Virus record (IMG/VR): IMGVR_UViG_3300039016_000025
Span: 1 to 45,876 of that record
Reading direction: 5' to 3' (one strand)
Length of the DNA stretch: 45,876 nucleotides
DNA from: a virus
The notes below the pieces were generated by a model that saw only the letters and a list, made by a program, of their open reading frames with translations, was not told where the DNA came from and did not search any database. Made by a program: the position numbers and the translations under genes. This document shows positions 21,394-42,806 of the stretch, piece by piece. Positions within the stretch are counted from its first letter, which is position 1. Every line of letters begins with the position of its first letter.

Positions 21394-21401
21394 AATATCT
21401 G

Positions 21402-30266: not shown

Positions 30267-30752
30267 TTACAGGGTGCCGATTCCGGTGCAGAAGGCAGCA
30301 TCGCCGCCGCCCGACGTAACCAGTTGAGCCCAAGCCAATTGCGCTTGCTCATGGTCGTCGCCGGTATAGCGCCAGCCAACTTTTTTACATTCGCGGGACA
30401 CGAAGAGCGCAACGCATTGGCCGACGTGCCGCTGTTCAATCAGCATTGGGCGCCAGCCTATCAGGTCCGCGGACTTCATGACTTCGTTAACCTGCTTTGA
30501 CTCATTCGCCAGTCCATAGCGCACGGGGACGCCCCGGGAATCAATCAGGGCGCCGACGTTGTTGCGGAATAGACGTACCCCTTTGCGGGCGGCTTCCAGG
30601 CGCACGGCGGCTTGTACCGCGGCTTCACTGGTGCCCTTCACTTCCGGCGGTAGGTCGTGGCCGCCGTGCATGCCAAAGAGTCCGGCAAGCTCTTGGAGTG
30701 CGGCCATAGTGACCCCGTGTCGCACGGCCCATTGGTAGACGGCCGGGCTCAC
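30267..30752 (-). CDS. VRR-NUC domain nuclease
   Basis: 161 aa, GTG start in a GTGA overlap. Has SADLIGW ... FVSRECKK (D...E.K). Confidence 0.65.
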   Translation of the reverse strand: MSPAVYQWAVRHGVTMAALQELAGLFGMHGGHDLPPEVKGTSEAAVQAAVRLEAARKGVRLFRNNVGALIDSRGVPVRYGLANESKQVNEVMKSADLIGWRPMLIEQRHVGQCVALFVSRECKKVGWRYTGDDHEQAQLAWAQLVTSGGGDAAFCTGIGTL

Positions 30753-31192
30753 TGTTCGACCCGCTCAAAAATAACCGTCATGCCCAAGCGTTCCGCGACG
30801 TGAAGCTCCAACGTTGCGCCCTTGGATTCTTTCCAACCGGACAGCATAAAAATTGCTTCGCACTTGACCAGTTCAGCAAGGTCTTTCCGCATGCAGCAAG
30901 ACCATGGGCGGTCGACTTCGATTGCGTCCGCGTTGATTTCCGCGGGGCTGAATACCGTCCACCCCTTTTCGCGCAAGAACTTGGCCGCCGCATGAAACGT
31001 CAGGTAATTGTGGTCGACCTTCCCGCTCATGGGTCCGGCAATGTAAATGGAATTTTCTTGGGTAAATATCTCCGGCGGTTTGGCCCTTTTTCGCCAATAG
31101 CAAACGTCGCAAAGGTCAAGGTCGACCCCGGCGTCGCGCCCGTGGCGATTGGGATTTATGGCGTAACTTCCACAGTTTTTACATCGGGGCAT
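30749..31192 (-). CDS. DUF4406 / nucleoside 2-deoxyribosyltransferase-like protein with N-terminal zinc ribbon
   Basis: 147 aa. Has CKNCGS...CDVC, then IYIAGPMSG ... CEAIFMLSGWKESKGATLE. Confidence 0.6.
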   Translation of the reverse strand: MPRCKNCGSYAINPNRHGRDAGVDLDLCDVCYWRKRAKPPEIFTQENSIYIAGPMSGKVDHNYLTFHAAAKFLREKGWTVFSPAEINADAIEVDRPWSCCMRKDLAELVKCEAIFMLSGWKESKGATLELHVAERLGMTVIFERVEQ

Positions 31193-32952: not shown

Positions 32953-34092
32953 TTAAGCCGACTCCTTCATGCTGGTGCGTGCAGCCTCCAATCGTGCATT
33001 GGCGATGGCGGTATATTGCGGGTCCAATTCAAAGCCAATGAATTGGAAACCCTCGAGAATCGCCGCCTTGCCAGTGCTTCCCGACCCAGCGAACGGGTCG
33101 ACGATCAGCCCCCCGGGCGGCGTGACCAGGCGGCACAGGTAGCGCATAAGCTCCGTCGGCTTAACGGTCGGGTGCGGGTTTTTTGCATCGGCGTTCATGT
33201 TGCGTGGGGAGCCGTCGCCATTTTTCGACAAGCCAGTGCCGGCCGCAAAATTAGCCATGACCGCGTCGAACGCTTCCAAGCCTTCATTGCGGTCGCGCTT
33301 GCTAGCCTTGGCGCAATAGAAGAAGCGTGCCGCGGAGCCCGTGCCGCAATCGACCTTGGTGCGTTCGCCACCCAAGTATTCAGCGGAGCCCGTGCCGACC
33401 GCCCCGTCCCCATAGCCGCTAATTTTGACGTTCGGCACGCTGCCCCCCGACCCGGCGCTGTCAGGGAACATTGCCACAACCTCGTCGCTTCCGTCGTGGA
33501 TCAAGTTCGCAGGGTAGCGACCGGCAGGCGATCCCGGCTTATTCTCATAGTCGGGCAATTCGTAACTGCTCCCATTTCCAACGATGCCCCCGCCGTGCCG
33601 CGTGCGACCTTCGGGGGCATCGTTGGATAACACACGGCACGCGTCGATATTGAGCAACGTCGCCACCTTCGCCGGCTTGCGGGCCATGGTTATGGGCTCC
33701 AAGGCTGGCTTTAAGCTGCTCCGGTGCTTGGGGTATCCGCTGCCGTAGACCCAAGCGATCATGTCGCGGATTTCAAAGCCGGAAATTTGCAAACCTAGCG
33801 CCATTAGGTGCTGTGTCCGTGTACCGGCGAACGCCAGGAGATACCCGCCGGGCTTGAGTACCCGCCAGCATTCGCGCCACATCGACGGCTGGGGCACAAA
33901 AGCGTCCCATTCTTTACCCATAAAGCCGCTCTTGCTTTTGTGGACATAGTCTTTACCGTTCATCCATGCTTGTAGCATCGCCAGCGCGTCGGGCTCTTTG
34001 CCTAGCCCGTACATGGGGTCGCAAACTATCGCGTCGACGCTGTTGTCCGGGAGCATCGCAAGGCCGTGTCGGCAATCCAAGTTCAAAATCAT
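32953..34092 (-). CDS. Orphan DNA methyltransferase, beta-class N6A/N4C family (motif IV DPMY)
   Basis: 379 aa. Has DPMYGLG early and VDPFAGSGSTG late. No adjacent nuclease. Confidence 0.8.
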   Translation of the reverse strand: MILNLDCRHGLAMLPDNSVDAIVCDPMYGLGKEPDALAMLQAWMNGKDYVHKSKSGFMGKEWDAFVPQPSMWRECWRVLKPGGYLLAFAGTRTQHLMALGLQISGFEIRDMIAWVYGSGYPKHRSSLKPALEPITMARKPAKVATLLNIDACRVLSNDAPEGRTRHGGGIVGNGSSYELPDYENKPGSPAGRYPANLIHDGSDEVVAMFPDSAGSGGSVPNVKISGYGDGAVGTGSAEYLGGERTKVDCGTGSAARFFYCAKASKRDRNEGLEAFDAVMANFAAGTGLSKNGDGSPRNMNADAKNPHPTVKPTELMRYLCRLVTPPGGLIVDPFAGSGSTGKAAILEGFQFIGFELDPQYTAIANARLEAARTSMKESA

Positions 34093-36584: not shown

Positions 36585-37646
36585 ATGGCACAAAAAGTTA
36601 ACATCACTTCGCCCGTCGGCCGTATCGTCATGGGTTCCCTGTATGACCCGTCGACCACGGACGCCGAAGGCAAGCCGCTGGTCGTCAAGACCGGCCCGAA
36701 CGCCGGCCAGCCCCGCGTCAACTACTTTTTCGCCCTGGCAATCCCCAAGGGTGTGGAACCGCATTGGGCGCACACGCCTTGGGGGCAACAGATTTGGAAC
36801 GTCGGCAATCAGGCTTTCCCGAACGCCGCGCAATCCCCGGCCTTCGCGTGGAAGATTGAAGACGGCGACAGCCAGATTCCCAACAAGAAGGGCCGGAAGC
36901 CGTGCGATAACGAAGGCTGGCGCGGGCATTGGATTCTGAAATTCTCCGGCGGCTTCGCCCCGAAGGTGTACCAGCAAGAGGGCGCCGGCTATGTTCAAGT
37001 CATGCAAAAAGACTTCTGCAAACCTGGCTACTTCGTGGAAGTTGCCTTTAGCGTCGAGGGTAACGGTAGCCAATCGCAACCGGGCGTCTACCTCAATCAT
37101 TCCATGGTTTGCTTCCGCGCCTACGGCCAGGAAATTACCTTTGGTCCCGACGTGGCTTCCGCTGGCTTCGGCGCAGCTCCGTTGCCCGCTGGCGCCAGCA
37201 TGACGCCGCCGGCCGGTGCCATTCCGATGCCCCAGGCCCCCGCCGCCGCTCCGGCCCTTCCCGGCGCCCCGGCTGGCTATGCACCGCCTCCGGTGCCCGG
37301 CATGATGCCCCAGGCCCCCGCCGCCGCTCCCGTGGCCTATGCGCCGCCCCCGGGCGTTCCGCAAGTACCTGGCGTGGCTCCGGCCCCTTTGGCGCCCGCT
37401 GGTTTTGCGCCGACGCCCTCCGTCCCTGTCCCGGGTGCGCCTGCGCCCATCCCGGTTACTCCTAACCCGGGCTTTGTGCAGGTTCCGCCGCCGGCCGCCG
37501 CTCCGGCACCGATGGCGCCCCCGCCCGCTCCGGTCGCCCCCGTGCGTCAAATGACGGCAGCTGCGCAAGGCGTGACCTATGACGCCTACGTCGCCGCCGG
37601 CTGGTCCGACGCTCAGTTGGTCCAAAACGGTTTGATGTTGGCTTAA
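36585..37646 (+). CDS. ssDNA-binding protein, DUF2815-like, with a long Pro/Ala linker and a conserved C-terminal tail
   Basis: 353 aa, AAGGAG RBS. The OB-like N-terminal 190 aa are followed by about 130 aa of P/A-rich linker. The tail is GWSDAQLVQNGLMLA. Confidence 0.65.
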   Translation: MAQKVNITSPVGRIVMGSLYDPSTTDAEGKPLVVKTGPNAGQPRVNYFFALAIPKGVEPHWAHTPWGQQIWNVGNQAFPNAAQSPAFAWKIEDGDSQIPNKKGRKPCDNEGWRGHWILKFSGGFAPKVYQQEGAGYVQVMQKDFCKPGYFVEVAFSVEGNGSQSQPGVYLNHSMVCFRAYGQEITFGPDVASAGFGAAPLPAGASMTPPAGAIPMPQAPAAAPALPGAPAGYAPPPVPGMMPQAPAAAPVAYAPPPGVPQVPGVAPAPLAPAGFAPTPSVPVPGAPAPIPVTPNPGFVQVPPPAAAPAPMAPPPAPVAPVRQMTAAAQGVTYDAYVAAGWSDAQLVQNGLMLA

Positions 37647-37653
37647 CGCAACC

Positions 37654-37685
37654 GCCTGGCCCTTCGGGGCCGGGCATTTTTATTT
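37654..37685 (+). terminator. Intrinsic terminator (9-bp stem, UUCG loop, T-run)
   Basis: gcctggccc ttcg gggccgggc atttttattt. Confidence 0.8.
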
Positions 37686-37696
37686 GTTTCGGGGTG

Positions 37697-37759: not shown

Positions 37760-38014
37760 ATGTCTAAATTCTCTTGCCAGTGCGGACGGTGTGGCGGTAG
37801 TGGCAAATATGACCGCGGCTCCTGTTTTGACTGCAATGGGCTTGGCTTTAAGAATGTTGCCCGTAAGCCGACGTTACTCGCTCACGTTCTGACTGTCACT
37901 TACAGCAATGGGAGCGTCAACACGGTTACGATTTACGCCAGCCTTCGCGCTGTTGCTGTGGAAATCGTTTCGCGGCAATTGAAAATCAAAGGTTGGATTG
38001 GTGAAGTTAAATGA
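37760..38014 (+). CDS. Small protein with DnaJ-type CxxCxGxG zinc-finger repeats
   Basis: 84 aa. CGRCGGSGK and CFDCNGLGF. Confidence 0.6.
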   Translation: MSKFSCQCGRCGGSGKYDRGSCFDCNGLGFKNVARKPTLLAHVLTVTYSNGSVNTVTIYASLRAVAVEIVSRQLKIKGWIGEVK

Positions 38015-38214
38015 AAAAGCGCGACCCCTTTGCTGCGGCCGAACAAAAGGGTCGCCGAGCGGCCCGCGACGGCCTTCCTATTACGGCATGCCCTTACGCC
38101 GATATCAGGAAGCCGTCGGGTAAATTGTCATGGTCAAGAGCGTGGCGTAACACTTGGATTATCGCGTATGAATCCGAACGCGTTAACATGGGTCACAAAC
38201 CCCCTTTTAGATGA
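38011..38214 (+). CDS. Rmf/CrpP-fold-like small protein
   Basis: 67 aa, ATGA-coupled. Pattern is GRRAARDGLPITACPY ... W. Confidence 0.45.
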   Translation: MKKRDPFAAAEQKGRRAARDGLPITACPYADIRKPSGKLSWSRAWRNTWIIAYESERVNMGHKPPFR

Positions 38215-38223
38215 GCGTGAATT

Positions 38224-38376
38224 ATGAGCAAATGGGATAGCCGTTTTATGGACCTTGCCCGGCTGGTTGCCAGTTGGAGTAAAGACCAGTCGACCCAAGT
38301 TGGCGCCGTCATTGTCGACCAAGACAAGCGCATAGTTTCAACCGGATTTAACGGCTTTCCCCGTTGCGTCAAATGA
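38224..38376 (+). pseudogene. Truncated dCMP/CMP deaminase (first 50 codons only; zinc-binding HAE/PCxxC motifs absent)
   Basis: MSKWDSRFMDLARLVASWSKDQSTQVGAVIVDQDKRIVSTGFNGFP matches the deaminase N-terminus. It is followed by a premature TGA at the junction with the duplicated segment. Confidence 0.6.
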
Positions 38377-38498
38377 CGGCCGCGGCGCAAGGCATCCCCT
38401 ATGAATCCTACATTCAACAGGGGTGGACCGACGCCATGCTGGTACAAAACGGGCTGATGCTGGCCTAATCGCAACCGCCTGGCCCTTCGGGGCCGGGC
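38366..38498 (+). repeat. Diverged second copy of the SSB 3-prime end plus terminator hairpin (copy 1 is 37544-37675)
   Basis: Aligned by eye. The hairpin is identical. The coding part encodes MTAAAQGIPYESYIQQGWTDAMLVQNGLMLA, against copy 1 MTAAAQGVTYDAYVAAGWSDAQLVQNGLMLA. Confidence 0.85.
38373..38468 (+). CDS. Possible 31-aa free-standing copy of the SSB tail peptide (ATGA-coupled to the deaminase remnant)
   Basis: The ATG overlaps the TGA of the remnant. The last 9 codons differ from copy 1 only synonymously. Confidence 0.3.
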   Translation: MTAAAQGIPYESYIQQGWTDAMLVQNGLMLA

Positions 38499-38519: not shown

Positions 38520-39440
38520 ATGCTGATATTCAAAAATAACAATGTGGCAAGCGTGATGATTGGCGATTGCTTAACGTCGCTTGCCACACTGCCTGAACGC
38601 TCGGTTAATTGCTGCGTTACTTCGCCGCCCTATTATGGCTTGCGCGACTACGGTGTCGACGGACAAATCGGCCTTGAAGACTCCCCCGACGCCTACGTCG
38701 CTAGATTGGTCGAAGTGTTCCGCGAAGTCCGTCGGGTACTGACTGACGACGGCACGCTATGGCTAAATATCGGTGACAGTTACGCCAGCAACCCGGCCAG
38801 CGGTGGCAATCGGTCTAGCAAAATGACAGGTGGCGAACATAAGCGCACGCCAACCGAGCACAAATATCGGCGACCCGACGGCCTCAAACCCAAAGACCTT
38901 ATAGGGATTCCCTGGCTATTGGCGTTTGCCTTACGTGCGGACGGGTGGTATTTGCGCCAGGATATTATTTGGCACAAGCCAAACCCGATGCCGGAATCAG
39001 TGCGCGACCGATGCACGAAGGCGCATGAATATTTATTTTTACTTTCAAAATCCGAACGGTATTTTTTCGATAGCGATGCGATGCAGGAACCGTCCAAAGG
39101 TCGCACCGATATGGGCCGAATGAATGGAATTGGTCGGATAAATGAAGGTGGATGGTGTACGGAAGAGCCAAAAGAAAAATTAACCCGCAACCGCCGAAGC
39201 GTATGGACAGTAACGCCAAAACCTTACAAGGGAGCACATTTCGCCGTCTACCCGCCCGAACTTATTGAACCTTGCGTATTGGCCGGATGCCCGGAGGGGG
39301 GCACTGTTTTAGACCCTTTCGGCGGCTCCGGCACGACGGGCGGCGTGGCCTTGAAGCATGGTAGAAACGCCGTTCTTTGCGAACTTAGCCCGGATTACGT
39401 GGCACTCATGCCCGCACGAATTGAGTCGATAGCATGCTGA
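38520..39440 (+). CDS. Orphan DNA methyltransferase, beta-class (motif IV SPPY, suggesting N4-cytosine or N6-adenine)
   Basis: 306 aa. Has TSPPYYGLRDY early and LDPFGGSGTTG late. GC is markedly lower than in the neighbours. Confidence 0.8.
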   Translation: MLIFKNNNVASVMIGDCLTSLATLPERSVNCCVTSPPYYGLRDYGVDGQIGLEDSPDAYVARLVEVFREVRRVLTDDGTLWLNIGDSYASNPASGGNRSSKMTGGEHKRTPTEHKYRRPDGLKPKDLIGIPWLLAFALRADGWYLRQDIIWHKPNPMPESVRDRCTKAHEYLFLLSKSERYFFDSDAMQEPSKGRTDMGRMNGIGRINEGGWCTEEPKEKLTRNRRSVWTVTPKPYKGAHFAVYPPELIEPCVLAGCPEGGTVLDPFGGSGTTGGVALKHGRNAVLCELSPDYVALMPARIESIAC

Positions 39441-41458
39441 TTGCCCCACCCCCGCCGCCGGCCACAGCGGCCCGCCCCGTGGCCTTCTACGATACGGAAT
39501 GCTTCCCCAACTATTGGTTGCTCAAGTTCCGCCCCCGCGGCGGTCAAGCGTACAGCTTCCGGCTACGGGCGGGGCAAGCGTTCGACCTTGTTACCGCGTC
39601 CCGCATTCGGCTGTTGTTCGACGCCTATTGCTCCGTCAGTTTCAACGGCAACTATTACGACGTCCCCATGATTACCGCGGCGCTGTCCGGCTACACCGCG
39701 GAGCAATTGAAATGGCTTAACGACCGCATCATCGTTGAAAAGGTGAAGCCTTGGGAACTTGGCTTGCCGGAGTGGCGCCCCGCGGACCATATCGACGTCA
39801 TGGAAGTCGCCCCGGGCGCCGGTTCCCAAAAGCAGTACGCCGGCCGGATTCACTGTAAGACAATGCGCGACCTCCCCTATGACCCGGGCCACTACGTCAC
39901 GGAAGCGGAGATTGTGGAAGTCGACACGTATTGCGAAAACGACCTTGCCGTGCTGGAAGCCCTCTTTGACGCCCTGCAGCCGATGATTGAACAGCGGGAA
40001 GCCTTGGGCAATCGCTACGGCTTGGACCTCCGGAGCAAGTCCGATGCCCAAGTCGCGGAGGCTGTACTTAAGCGCCGTTGTGAACAGGCCCTTGGGCAAC
40101 GCATTTACAAGCCGGAAATTGATTGGAATTTAGCGTTTCGGTACAAGGTGCCGCCGTTCATTTCCTACACGCTCCCGCAACTGCAAAGGGCCTTGGAACT
40201 GGTCCGCGAATCCGTCTTTAGGCTAGGGCCGTCCGGCGCCGTGGAAATGCCGCCACAGCTTGAAGGGCTGGAAATTACCGTCAACCGTTCGACCTATAAA
40301 ATGGGCATTGGGGGCTTGCACAGCCAGGAGAAAAAACTAGTCGCCGTGAGTGGTCCGAACAACCAAATACGGATGCCGGACGTCGCCAGCTATTACCCAA
40401 ATCTAATTTTGAATTCCGGCGAGTGGCCGCCCGCCCTTGGGCCGACCTTCCTCAAAGAGTACGAATCCATTAAGGATGAACGCCTAGCCGCCAAAGCCTT
40501 GCAAGGGAAATTAAAGAAGGCCGGCGACACAAAGAGCCATGAATATGCCGAAGCCAGGGTCGGCAACGAAGGTGGCAAGATTATGATTAACGGGACTTTT
40601 GGAAAGACCGGGAGCCCGTACAGCGTTCTTTTTGCGCCGACCATGTTGATTCAAACAACAGTAACCGGGCAATTGTCCCTTTTGATGCTGATTGAATGGC
40701 ACGAACTTTACGGAATCCCGGTTATTTCGGCCAATACCGACGGCATAGTCATTGACTGCCCGCGGGATAAGCTGCAGGTCAGTGAATACCTTATTGCTGA
40801 ATGGCAACGCCGCACGGGCTTGGAAATGGAAACGGACGATTACGTCGCCCTCTATGCCCGGGACGTGAACAACTATTTTGCAATCAAGACCCCGGACGAC
40901 GTGAAGCGCAAAGGGGAATATGCCAAAGCCGGTTTGGCTGAAAAGAAAAACCCCGACGTCGAGATTTGCGCGGACGCCGTGGCGGAATTCTTGGCAAAGG
41001 GTGTGCCCGTGGAATACACCATTGCCGCGTGCCGTGATATTCGCAAGTTCGTTACCATCCAGAAGGTCAACGGGGGCGGCGTCAAAATGTGGGGCGAAGG
41101 GCCGCGCAAGGGTGCCAGGGTCATGGATATGGTCGGCACGTTGCAGGCCAACGGATGGACCAAGGAGGGCCGCAAGTGGCGCCGCGGGGACATGCTGGCA
41201 CCAGCGGCCACAGCATACGCCGCGTGCTTCCAGCCCCAAACGCCGGAATACTTGGGAAAGGTGGTGCGCTGGTACTACAGCACGCAAGCGCCTGGCCCCA
41301 TCGTCTACGCCAGTAACGGCAACACGGTAAGCCTTTCCTATGGTGCCCGGCCGTGCATGACGCTACCGGACGAATTCCCGGACGATATCGACTACGCTTG
41401 GTACGTCGGCAAGGCCGAAGCGATGTTGCGGGACGTTGGATATTATCAGTTGACATAG
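39434..41458 (+). CDS. Family B DNA polymerase with 3-5 exonuclease domain
   Basis: 674 aa. Exo I is FYDTECF, motif A DVASYYPN, motif B KIMINGTFGK, motif C SANTDGIV. Confidence 0.8.
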   Translation: MLIAPPPPPATAARPVAFYDTECFPNYWLLKFRPRGGQAYSFRLRAGQAFDLVTASRIRLLFDAYCSVSFNGNYYDVPMITAALSGYTAEQLKWLNDRIIVEKVKPWELGLPEWRPADHIDVMEVAPGAGSQKQYAGRIHCKTMRDLPYDPGHYVTEAEIVEVDTYCENDLAVLEALFDALQPMIEQREALGNRYGLDLRSKSDAQVAEAVLKRRCEQALGQRIYKPEIDWNLAFRYKVPPFISYTLPQLQRALELVRESVFRLGPSGAVEMPPQLEGLEITVNRSTYKMGIGGLHSQEKKLVAVSGPNNQIRMPDVASYYPNLILNSGEWPPALGPTFLKEYESIKDERLAAKALQGKLKKAGDTKSHEYAEARVGNEGGKIMINGTFGKTGSPYSVLFAPTMLIQTTVTGQLSLLMLIEWHELYGIPVISANTDGIVIDCPRDKLQVSEYLIAEWQRRTGLEMETDDYVALYARDVNNYFAIKTPDDVKRKGEYAKAGLAEKKNPDVEICADAVAEFLAKGVPVEYTIAACRDIRKFVTIQKVNGGGVKMWGEGPRKGARVMDMVGTLQANGWTKEGRKWRRGDMLAPAATAYAACFQPQTPEYLGKVVRWYYSTQAPGPIVYASNGNTVSLSYGARPCMTLPDEFPDDIDYAWYVGKAEAMLRDVGYYQLT

Positions 41459-41478
41459 ATAAATTATTTAGCTACAGT
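41450..41478 (+). promoter_or_regulatory. Early promoter cassette copy 6 (TTGACA-17-TACAGT). The -35 lies in the last polymerase codons
   Basis: ttgaca tagataaattatttagc tacagt. Confidence 0.65.
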
Positions 41479-41509
41479 ACACCTATACCAACCAACCGGA
41501 GATTTAAAA

Positions 41510-42082
41510 GTGATTACCGTAAAAACTCAATCTATCAAAGCTGCTTGCGGAATGGCATCGACAAAGGATGTACGTTATTACTTGGTCGGCGTGCAAATTC
41601 TAGTGCGAGATGACGGCGCCGTTCATGTCCGCGCTACCGACGGGTCTTTGGCATTTGACGACTTGATGCCTGAAAAATCAGCATTCGCCCCGGCCGACTT
41701 CATCATCCCTTTGGATACCGCCAAGCTGATCGCCAAAAGCAAATTGCAGACTGTTGAAATTACCATCGCGCCGGACGGTCGATACGAATGCGCCGGGCAA
41801 ATTTTCAAACCGATCGACGGTAGATTTCCAGACTGCGACCGGGTGCTGCCGACCCGCGACAGTCAATTTGATGCCGCCGTAAATCAATATGACGCTGAAC
41901 TGCTGGCGCGATGCCAAACTGCCATGCGGATTGCCACGGGTTTGAGCAAAGCATTCTTCAAGATGCAGAACTCCCCATGCGGACTCATGCACCGTGAGAA
42001 CGACACGTATCCGCGGTGTGCTGTGATGCCGTTGCGCGACCGTGCTTTTTTGGACAATTATGAGCCCACACCATGCGCGTAA
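41510..42082 (+). CDS. Short DnaN (beta sliding clamp)-like protein, 190 aa
   Basis: GTG start after GGAGA. Three segments match hallmark stretches of E. coli DnaN domains II-III. KDVRYYLVGV matches QDVRYYLNGM. ATDGSLAF matches ATDGHRLA. IDGRFPDCDRVLP matches VDGRFPDYRRVLP. The C-terminal AVMPLR matches VVMPMRL. Confidence 0.65.
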   Translation: MITVKTQSIKAACGMASTKDVRYYLVGVQILVRDDGAVHVRATDGSLAFDDLMPEKSAFAPADFIIPLDTAKLIAKSKLQTVEITIAPDGRYECAGQIFKPIDGRFPDCDRVLPTRDSQFDAAVNQYDAELLARCQTAMRIATGLSKAFFKMQNSPCGLMHRENDTYPRCAVMPLRDRAFLDNYEPTPCA

Positions 42083-42399
42083 TTCTCTTGATACTGGCCG
42101 CCCTTGTGGCATGTAGCAACGCCCAGGCGTCCGACAATTCCTGTTTGCAAGGGGTCCGCGTGGCCCATGAGACTTATAGGCTTGTGACGCTCGACCCCGC
42201 CAATCCGCCTTTGCCGGCGTATCGGGCTGCCTTTGAATATCGAATGAAGCGGCAACCGTTCCCAGCAAACCGGGAGCATGCCGCAAACGCCTTGATTTAC
42301 ATTATTACCCGCCTGAAAAATGCCGACATGGTTCCTTTTGAGGAATGGCAAGTCGATTGGGCGGCCCAGGAATACATTACAAAGGAGTGCAACAAGTGA
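42073..42399 (+). CDS. Lipoprotein (lipobox LVAC)
   Basis: 108 aa. Signal MRVILLILAALVAC followed by SNAQ. Confidence 0.65.
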   Translation: MRVILLILAALVACSNAQASDNSCLQGVRVAHETYRLVTLDPANPPLPAYRAAFEYRMKRQPFPANREHAANALIYIITRLKNADMVPFEEWQVDWAAQEYITKECNK

Positions 42400-42806
42400 T
42401 TTACAAGACCGGAACGAAACTTACCGACCGGGAATCCGGCGCCGTGTTTGTGGTCAGCGGGTCCAATGCGGAGGAAACCAGTTACCAAGGGGCCAGCGGC
42501 CGGGGGACTATCAAGACCGCCGAAGTCGCGTCGATGTTTGAAGTCGACGGCGAACCGCTCCGCACGGTGGACGAACATTTGTCGGCGCTGGATACCCAGG
42601 TCGGCGGGGACCATTACAAGAAGCTTGGCGCCTATCAGCCGTGGGAAGTCTTGCGCCACTGGCTCACGCCCGAAGAATTCCGCGGGTACATGAAGGGCAC
42701 GGCCATTGCGTACTTGGCCCGGGAGCAAGACAAGGGGGGCATGCTGGATATCCGCAAAGCCGGCCACACGCTGCAGGGCCTTGTCGAACTGTTGGGGGCT
42801 GAATAA
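42396..42806 (+). CDS. DUF3310-like protein
   Basis: Track ORF is 42345..42806. Preferred start is GTG 42396, after AAGGAG and in a GTGA overlap. Has GGDHYKK...QPWEV...GTAIAYLAREQDKGG. Confidence 0.6.
   Translation: MIYKTGTKLTDRESGAVFVVSGSNAEETSYQGASGRGTIKTAEVASMFEVDGEPLRTVDEHLSALDTQVGGDHYKKLGAYQPWEVLRHWLTPEEFRGYMKGTAIAYLAREQDKGGMLDIRKAGHTLQGLVELLGAE

Follow-up and report, generated by a model that had tools for sequence, protein, structure and literature searches.

The pocket of the bacterial beta clamp, DnaN, is a hub that organizes the proteins of bacterial replication, repair and damage tolerance, and it is an antibiotic target. DnaN is a protein of about 366 amino acids (aa) in three domains. 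Phages encode homologues of this clamp (polIII-beta), among which "five are shorter" (Kazlauskas and Venclovas 2011; PMC3201878), the short ones having been described as covering "the second and third domains" (PMC3201878). Such short copies have been noted since 2006 and 2011, and genome papers list the genes without comment; in the literature that we searched, we found no functional or structural study of a short clamp and no described clamp decoy. Here we analyze a short DnaN-like gene at positions 41510..42082 (plus strand, stop codon included) of the viral record IMGVR_UViG_3300039016_000025, all 45,876 nucleotides (nt) of which we call the window. The gene encodes a 190-aa protein that belongs to this already known family, and it has the same length and boundaries as members such as Bcep781 gp15 and the proteins of phrog_3007. 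We tentatively favor, at somewhat less than an even chance, the reading that the window protein is a free-standing copy of the beta-clamp pocket, that is, a non-ring receptor for clamp-binding motifs (CBMs), most likely those of host proteins.

As judged from profile comparison and a predicted structure, the window protein is a true beta-clamp homologue. Searched as a single sequence, it found beta clamps among solved structures at ~5e-7, and a 29-sequence family profile found them at E 2.6e-12; hhalign against Escherichia coli DnaN gave a probability of 99.3%. An AlphaFold2 (AF2) model built on the family alignment had a predicted local distance difference test score (pLDDT) of 88.6 and a predicted template-modeling score (pTM) of 0.85, and its 50 best Foldseek matches in solved structures were bacterial beta clamps in 50 of 50 cases. 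In a viral structure library, the same model matched many phage proteins of 160-250 aa that are either named "DNA polymerase III beta" or unnamed. A preliminary description of this DNA had recognized a half-length DnaN homologue from a set of paired motifs, and both the homology and the pairings hold: against the actual E. coli K-12 DnaN, KDVRYYLVGV pairs with QDVRYYLNGM, ATDGSLAF with ATDGHRLA, and KPIDGRFPDCDRVLP with KLVDGRFPDYRRVLP, and the pairing of CAVMPLR with the DnaN C-terminal YVVMPMRL was right as well, since a profile of the C-terminal part matches beta clamps only at their extreme C-termini. The DnaN central domain (PF02767) was matched at E 2.9e-4 and 21.5 bits, under its gathering score of 27, and was the sole Pfam match at E <= 1, none being returned for PF00712 (domain I) or PF02768 (domain III). 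NCBIfam TIGR00663 (DnaN) gave 25.2 bits, far under its cut-off of 137.65, and the PADLOC defense-system models gave nothing at E <= 0.01.

The window protein differs from bacterial DnaN in being phage encoded, in having neither domain I nor the first half of domain III, and in carrying an extra C-terminal tail. Residues 1-112 (41510..41845, plus strand) are predicted by AF2, hhalign and profile alignment to form a complete clamp domain corresponding to domain II of E. coli DnaN (about 125-250); in the AF2 model they run beta-alpha-beta-beta-beta, twice, and they carry the domain II-like motifs KDVRYYL (R22, L25), TDG (T43, G45) and DGRFPDxDRV (P107, R111, V112). The N-terminal part aligns from the domain II boundary through PDYRRVLP of E. 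coli DnaN, with hhalign pairing window residues 12-154 with E. coli residues 142-285 and profile positions 16-117 pairing with chain residues 167-273 of solved clamps. Residues 113-126 (41846..41887, plus strand) are a linker without regular secondary structure, modeled at the lowest confidence (block mean 78), that takes the place where DnaN has the first half of its domain III (E. coli about 250-316). They are followed by a half domain of a helix and three strands, residues 127-176 (41888..42037, plus strand; elements spanning 129-172 in the AF2 model), which is the counterpart of E. coli residues 318-366, the latter half of DnaN domain III, with YD in place of FN320, L131 in place of Y323 and the AVMPLR strand in place of V360-R365.

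Several comparisons place this half domain at the DnaN C-terminus. Searched against all solved structures, the C-terminal profile A3 had beta clamps as its five best matches, each at the extreme C-terminus (for example, residues 321-373 of 374 in 7rzm, E 0.011, and 333-366 of 367 in the Pseudomonas aeruginosa clamp). Compared with full-length E. coli DnaN by hhalign, A3 aligned with residues 318-366 (E 5.7e-4, probability 30%), and in a local hidden Markov model (HMM) test the two halves of domain III scored -0.0 bits (first) and 9.3 bits (second). The better Foldseek fits of the AF2 model (template-modeling score 0.6-0.69) covered about 250 columns for a query of 190 residues, of which about 60 were gap columns, the size of the missing half domain. 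The full-length HMM and hhalign alignments continue, at low confidence, co-linearly into the first half of domain III; this mapping was dropped because the three independent C-terminal tests choose 318-366, and because the invariant M-P-x-R strand and the F/Y-N/D-x-x-L-L helix match the DnaN C-terminus. Pfam scans of ten isolated C-terminal fragments returned no DnaN domain III, the HMMER filters probably dropping weak matches. By alignment and model, then, the window protein is DnaN residues of about 125-250 joined to 318-366 and followed by a short extra tail. The earlier view of a domain II with a shortened domain III is thus upheld and made more precise, the domain III part being the C-terminal half only; the literature, in speaking of the second and third domains, describes the short homologues as holding more of the third.

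Residues 177-190 (42038..42079, plus strand) form the tail past the DnaN end, as delimited by alignment and by the lengths of homologues and of genes at related loci. Its DRAFLDN is kept across the window subfamily. The last seven residues, YEPTPCA (42059-42082), occur here and in the related locus L006, most of the listed relatives stopping at ...FLDN, and apparently arose through recent loss of a stop codon. In the family alignment A2, tails after the VVMPxR strand carry [YFW]-x-G-[LFIWMV] in 43 of 126 members, against 2.7 expected from shuffled tails; the window subfamily has (D/N)xAF(L/V)xN instead. The family tail could cap the surface bared by the missing half domain, or could act as a self-ligand of the pocket.

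The division between what is kept and what is lost follows the functional surfaces of the clamp. In E. coli DnaN, subsite I of the CBM pocket consists of R152, L155, T172, G174, H175, R176, L177, P242, R246, V247, V360 and M362, and subsite II of H175, N320, Y323, V344, M362, P363, M364 and R365; the dimer interface is built from I78, R103 and F106 in domain I and from I272, L273, E298 and E304 in the first half of domain III (PMC11139829). By alignment, the pieces predicted to be retained hold every CBM pocket residue position, and the absent pieces hold every interface residue. The preliminary description had proposed that the protein cannot form the normal dimeric ring, and this stands: the interface residues (PMC11139829) are lost along with domain I and the leading half of domain III, and no canonical dimeric ring is possible.

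We assessed pocket conservation in an alignment of 126 diverse members with a mean column identity of 24%, using E. coli numbering. In subsite I, R152 was kept in 97% of members, L155 in 98%, T172 in 91% and G174 in 98%; P242 was kept in 98%, R246 in 90% and V247 in 83% (V or I in 94%). Position 360 was V or I in 81%, and M362, P363 and R365 were kept in 91%, 83% and 70%, respectively, with N320 present as N or D in 88%. Seven of the 18 pocket positions were at least 90% conserved, compared with 17 of 183 overall (hypergeometric p 2.9e-4), and the median conservation was 0.76 for the pocket and 0.36 for the remaining positions (Mann-Whitney p 4e-6). The window protein itself has the equivalents of R152, L155, T172, G174, P242, R246, V247, M362 and P363, and the pocket motifs D-x-RYYL-x-G, TDG, DGxFPD-x-x-RV-x-P and VMP-x-R are common to it and bacterial DnaN.

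This architecture is widespread. A profile search of 1.84 billion representative proteins returned 8,104 matches at E <= 1e-3 and 1,798 at E <= 1e-10, so that the family comprises at least 1,798 clusters (50% identity) at the stricter threshold. The best 150 family matches were all short (109-266 aa), mostly 170-220 aa with a near full-length alignment, and across 82 viral and metagenomic loci the open reading frames (ORFs) were mostly 171-232 aa. The family is carried by tailed phages that infect Proteobacteria: homologues occur in phages of Burkholderia, Ralstonia, Acinetobacter, Vibrio and Pseudoalteromonas, and Bcep781 gp15 matched the family model at 1e-55. A genome scan with a narrow family alignment gave only 7 weak loci.

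Among PHROGs, residues 1-177 of the window protein matched positions 2-186 of the 190-position profile of phrog_3007 (E 1.7e-21), a family labeled "RusA-like Holliday junction resolvase." We rejected this label, since the protein has a clamp fold and its sole Pfam match is the DnaN central domain; a genuine RusA is separately encoded in Bcep781, as gp22. The RusA-like label appears in RefSeq for Bcep781 gp15, Anchaing and C7 and also in the GenBank record of Ab9 (NC_004333.2, NC_054891.1, PP763254.1 and NC_070824.1), and it looks like a misannotation that was propagated among the phage records of RefSeq. The 200-aa AchV4 gp74, encoded upstream of a related polymerase, was considered as a further short clamp and rejected because it did not match the family model; its acidic C-terminal tail suggests a single-stranded DNA-binding protein (SSB).

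We favor a non-ring CBM receptor because the pocket is complete, both ring-closing surfaces are absent, and no clamp loader or complementing partner was found: the window proteins that were scanned gave no clamp-loader match, and a search of the window for another clamp-like ORF able to supply the missing 1.5 domains returned nothing. Such a protein would form no canonical ring and would need no clamp loader; expressed from a host-type promoter alongside other cassette-driven operons, it would be a soluble receptor for CBM-type peptides (Q-L-x-L-F-like). The likeliest ligands would be host CBM proteins, for example, DNA polymerase III (Pol III) alpha or delta, Pol I, ligase, MutS, MutL, Hda or translesion polymerases. 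A host motif is a likelier ligand than a phage-specific peptide because the pocket stays DnaN-like across phages with a family B polymerase (PolB), a family A polymerase (PolA) or no annotated polymerase, and because CAjan gp33, a phage clamp of full length that is tied to the polymerase of its phage, has drifted from the pocket motifs, most of which it has lost and the short family keeps. As a decoy, the window protein might compete with the host clamp for CBM proteins and so shut off or redirect host replication or repair; as an adaptor, it might hold CBM proteins at the phage replisome. We slightly prefer the competitor to the adaptor.

Several observations weigh against a free-standing pocket for host motifs. 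The window subfamily has S/T at the position of H175 and A/V at that of L177 (S46 and A48 in the window protein), which makes the pocket less canonical, and host-like pocket motifs might persist partly for folding. The scores behind the C-terminal mapping, which supplies part of the pocket, are modest (E 0.011; hhalign E 5.7e-4, probability 30%), though concordant. In the close lineage the clamp gene always adjoins the polymerase, and homologous PolB genes elsewhere have a full-length clamp gene next door. A decoy that blocked host Pol III would moreover hurt phages that need Pol III, such as Acinetobacter phage Cato, and the host ligand therefore cannot be the replicase in every member.

The association with the polymerase is the basis of a different reading, in which the window protein would be a non-ring accessory subunit comparable to UL42 that binds the adjoining PolB, possibly together with the SSB tail, tethers it to DNA or the replisome and raises processivity without a clamp loader. 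We consider this rather unlikely but, given the adjacency, a serious rival; the preliminary description had raised a link to the adjacent polymerase, and part of that link stands. The clamp gene lies downstream of the polymerase in the window and in the related loci L006-L011, L013-L015 and L026, and upstream of it in L005 and L012, so that all close relatives have the two genes side by side in one order or the other. Homologous PolB genes also adjoin full-length, beta-like clamps in CAjan, a Seuratvirus (gp33, 317 aa, "processivity factor"), phiAxp-1 (gp63, 346 aa; PMC4764938) and Loki (gp23; PMC5313236); these clamps share the position of the window gene beside a homologous polymerase (PMC4764938, PMC5313236), but at 317-346 aa they have three domains and are presumably rings. 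The lack of a clamp-loader match suits this reading too, as do conserved basic residues (K72, K76, K78 [92%] and R140) on helices that are channel-lining in beta, and non-ring processivity factors with a clamp fold are an established class (PMC9690074, PMC3201878). The herpesvirus UL42 monomer and the C-shaped dimers of UL44 and BMRF1 resemble the window protein in having a clamp fold without a closed ring or a loader and in binding a partner on the face equivalent to the clamp pocket (PMC9690074, PMC3201878). They differ in being PCNA-type proteins of two domains with a strongly basic DNA-binding face, whereas the window protein is beta-type and has 1.5 domains, and they have no homology with it at the level of sequence. 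Its isoelectric point (pI) is 6.1 (net charge -1), compared with a family median of 7.0 (above 7.5 in 45% of members) and 5.25 for E. coli beta, whereas the known non-ring factors are markedly basic (PMC3201878). The link is weakened in that the clamp does not follow one polymerase. In L004, a clamp 58% identical to that of the window, with the same exonuclease and SSB neighbors, adjoins an unrelated family A-type polymerase of 788 aa (L004 6556-8922) that stands in place of PolB. Elsewhere the family also occurs far from polymerases: at other loci a family A-type polymerase lies 3.5-6 kb off on the opposite strand, of the 47 loci that span 9 kb or more, just 16 have a polymerase of either type within 8 kb, and in many loci the clamp gene diverges from apparent terminase genes. 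Some members sit among structural genes, such as Bcep781 gp15 in the head module, on the opposite strand, and gene 36 of Cato (185 aa), which matches the family model at E 1.6e-27 and is flanked by tail and baseplate genes; the deposited annotation of Cato, one genome of one genus (Obolenskvirus), has no polymerase, only a DnaB-type helicase. Finally, no canonical CBM was found at the ends of window proteins or of the adjoining polymerases of relatives, whether of the B or the A type, the lone match in the polymerases being an internal QLSLL in a hydrophobic stretch. Conserved adjacency in the close lineage and the full-length clamps beside related PolB genes thus speak for the link, and the polymerase swap, the members in structural modules or in a genome with no annotated polymerase, and the lack of a canonical CBM in the polymerases speak against it.

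Other alternatives make more of the exposed edges of the protein. Four copies of 1.5 domains might form a closed ring of D2 symmetry, with paired half domains completing three-domain arcs and two arcs making a six-domain sliding clamp. Six domains is the total common to all known clamps (PMC9690074), the internal pseudo-twofold of the clamp domain could allow a second copy to complete the half domain, and the half domain otherwise bares the surface that faces its missing half. We nonetheless regard this arrangement as quite improbable: nothing in the analysis supports an oligomer, closing the ring would take a novel interface at which strands of two identical domain II edges meet, the AF2 model of a single copy is already confident, and the conserved C-terminal tail, absent from DnaN, could cap the bared surface; there was also no match to a loader among the window proteins scanned. 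Were it true, this ring would be a third sliding-clamp stoichiometry beside 2 x 3 and 3 x 2, with pockets on both faces and DNA entry without the usual head-to-tail interface. The edge strands that contact neighboring domains in DnaN, which would be unpaired in a 1.5-domain protein, might instead let the domain II-like edge pair with the open interface of a host beta monomer and prevent ring closure or loading, and phages do exploit the host clamp pocket, as in Mu MuC (PMC12867686). Such poisoning of the host clamp seems improbable, as the residues of the natural beta-beta interface are exactly those absent (PMC11139829), selection is focused on the pocket and not on the edges, and the effect would be harmful to phages that rely on host Pol III. 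Least probable, and already close to refuted, is that the gene is a decaying, functionless remnant of a full-length phage or host dnaN. The Bcep781 record does name gp15 a "DNA Pol III b subunit fragment," and the G+C content at third codon positions (GC3) of the window gene is below that of most neighboring genes: the gene has 52.7% GC and 57.6% GC3 in a window of 58.2% GC, compared with 68-73% GC3 in four of the five adjoining genes checked and 56% in the methylase. Against decay, the ratio of nonsynonymous to synonymous substitution rates (dN/dS) relative to relatives is 0.07-0.10, and the clamp gene is under purifying selection; in addition, the family contains hundreds of diverged clusters of common length and domain boundaries, the gene is equipped with a promoter and a Shine-Dalgarno sequence of its own, its N-terminus is conserved, and the predicted model folds confidently.

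Related loci show two further features. The 289-aa gene call P0036 consists of an N-terminal family A-type polymerase fragment fused in frame upstream of the short clamp and, with L004, provides sequence evidence of probable rearrangement at the polymerase-clamp junction. In L009, L010 and L015, the family B polymerase gene is broken up into ORFs of 389 and 322 aa with about 600 nt between them, which suggests an insertion (an intron, intein or homing endonuclease) or a disruption.

The gene and its promoter lie where the preliminary description had placed them. The ORF occupies 41510-42082 on the plus strand with a GTG start and 190 codons for amino acids, and 41521-41580 contains exactly 23 G+C, as had been counted by hand. 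We consider the GTG start fixed because of its spacing from the Shine-Dalgarno sequence and because of the conserved N-terminus of homologues, MITVKT: the conserved leader (41479..41509, plus strand) carries GGAG at 41498-41501, 8 nt ahead of the GTG. Upstream, a promoter cassette (41449..41478, plus strand) overlaps the stop codon of the polymerase gene and has a -35 hexamer TTGACA (41450-41455), a conserved 17-nt spacer and a -10 hexamer TACAGT (41473-41478); in a consensus scan, it matched the sigma-70-type consensus at 10 of 12 positions. This cassette, earlier counted as copy 6, is genuine: the conserved block of about 26 nt is present in six copies in the window, compared with 0.01 expected by chance, five of them having at most two mismatches to the 26-mer and all six having at most three mismatches to a 21-mer core. 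The copies lie at 21401, 25177, 26157, 27440, 37696 and 41449, three per strand, and share the layout GTTGACATAG(A/G)TAAATTATTTATCTA, -10 hexamer, conserved leader (CATCAAC..CAACCGGAG) and start codon; in an alignment of five copies, the distance from the conserved CAACCGGAG to the start codon that follows does not vary. Because the 17-nt spacer is invariant, the cassette may hold a regulator-binding site besides the promoter. When phage records were searched for DNA nearly identical to 39434-42400, nothing matched, and relatives were found at the protein level only.

The window covers nearly all of the genome of a phage of the Bcep781 / Aeromonas phage 56 type. Its genes include those for a portal, a terminase, a primase-helicase, a second helicase, two methyltransferases, a ParB-like protein, an exonuclease, a gp2.5-like SSB and lysis proteins. 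The gene upstream of the clamp (39434..41458, plus strand) encodes a 674-aa family B DNA polymerase, as had been proposed: it matches phrog_1252 at E 1.5e-177, and the solved structures that its profile (A7) matched were nearly all family B polymerases (1s5j at 7e-7, Pol alpha, KOD/Tgo), the single sequence having matched no solved structure. Downstream, with a 10-nt overlap with the 3' end of the clamp gene, lies an ORF of 108 aa with a lipoprotein-type signal (MRVILLILAALVAC...; 42073..42399, plus strand). It is kept downstream of the clamp gene in L006-L010, L013 and L014 and had no match among the families scanned.

The gp2.5-like SSB (36585-37646) has a proline/alanine-rich linker of about 150 residues with repeats and a conserved, non-acidic, hydrophobic tail, GW(S/T)DAQL(V/I)QNGLM(L/V)A, which in this phage ends ...GWSDAQLVQNGLMLA; in L004 and L005 the tail reads ...EQMRA(S/Q)GYL(L/A). 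The tails of T7 gp2.5 and E. coli SSB, by comparison, are acidic. The tail of the window SSB has a loose likeness to clamp-binding motifs at C-termini, such as QLVLGL, and is a candidate ligand of the short clamp. A duplication includes the SSB gene's 3' end together with the terminator hairpin, the copies lying at 37537-37675 and, 822 nt downstream, at 38359-38498 (83% and 94% identity); the second copy of the SSB end reads ...RQMTAAAQGIPYESYIQQGWTDAMLVQNGLMLA* and has stop codons upstream. In L006, an SSB tail with the exact sequence of the second copy lies directly upstream of the methylase, and because of this arrangement the intervening block of about 820 nt, which contains the cassette copy at 37696 and small ORFs at 37760-38214, looks like an insertion or recombination scar. 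Two methyltransferase genes and a nucleoside 2-deoxyribosyltransferase-like gene (30749-31192, 32953-34092 and 38520-39440) may point to DNA modification in this phage.

To a family already on record, the present analysis adds an exact anatomy, family-wide selection on the pocket, an estimate of family size and independence from any single polymerase, and correcting the RusA-like label is useful by itself. The same surface, in which pocket meets motif, is contested between phage and host by Mu MuC-type proteins (PMC12867686), but in the reverse sense: the MuC-type phage gives the peptide, and the window phage would give the pocket. If the family binds CBMs, it would offer a ready-made tool to capture proteins that bind the clamp and a minimal scaffold on which pocket inhibitors could be studied, and it would represent a natural soluble competitor or adaptor for the beta-clamp hub and a new route by which phages redirect host replication or repair.

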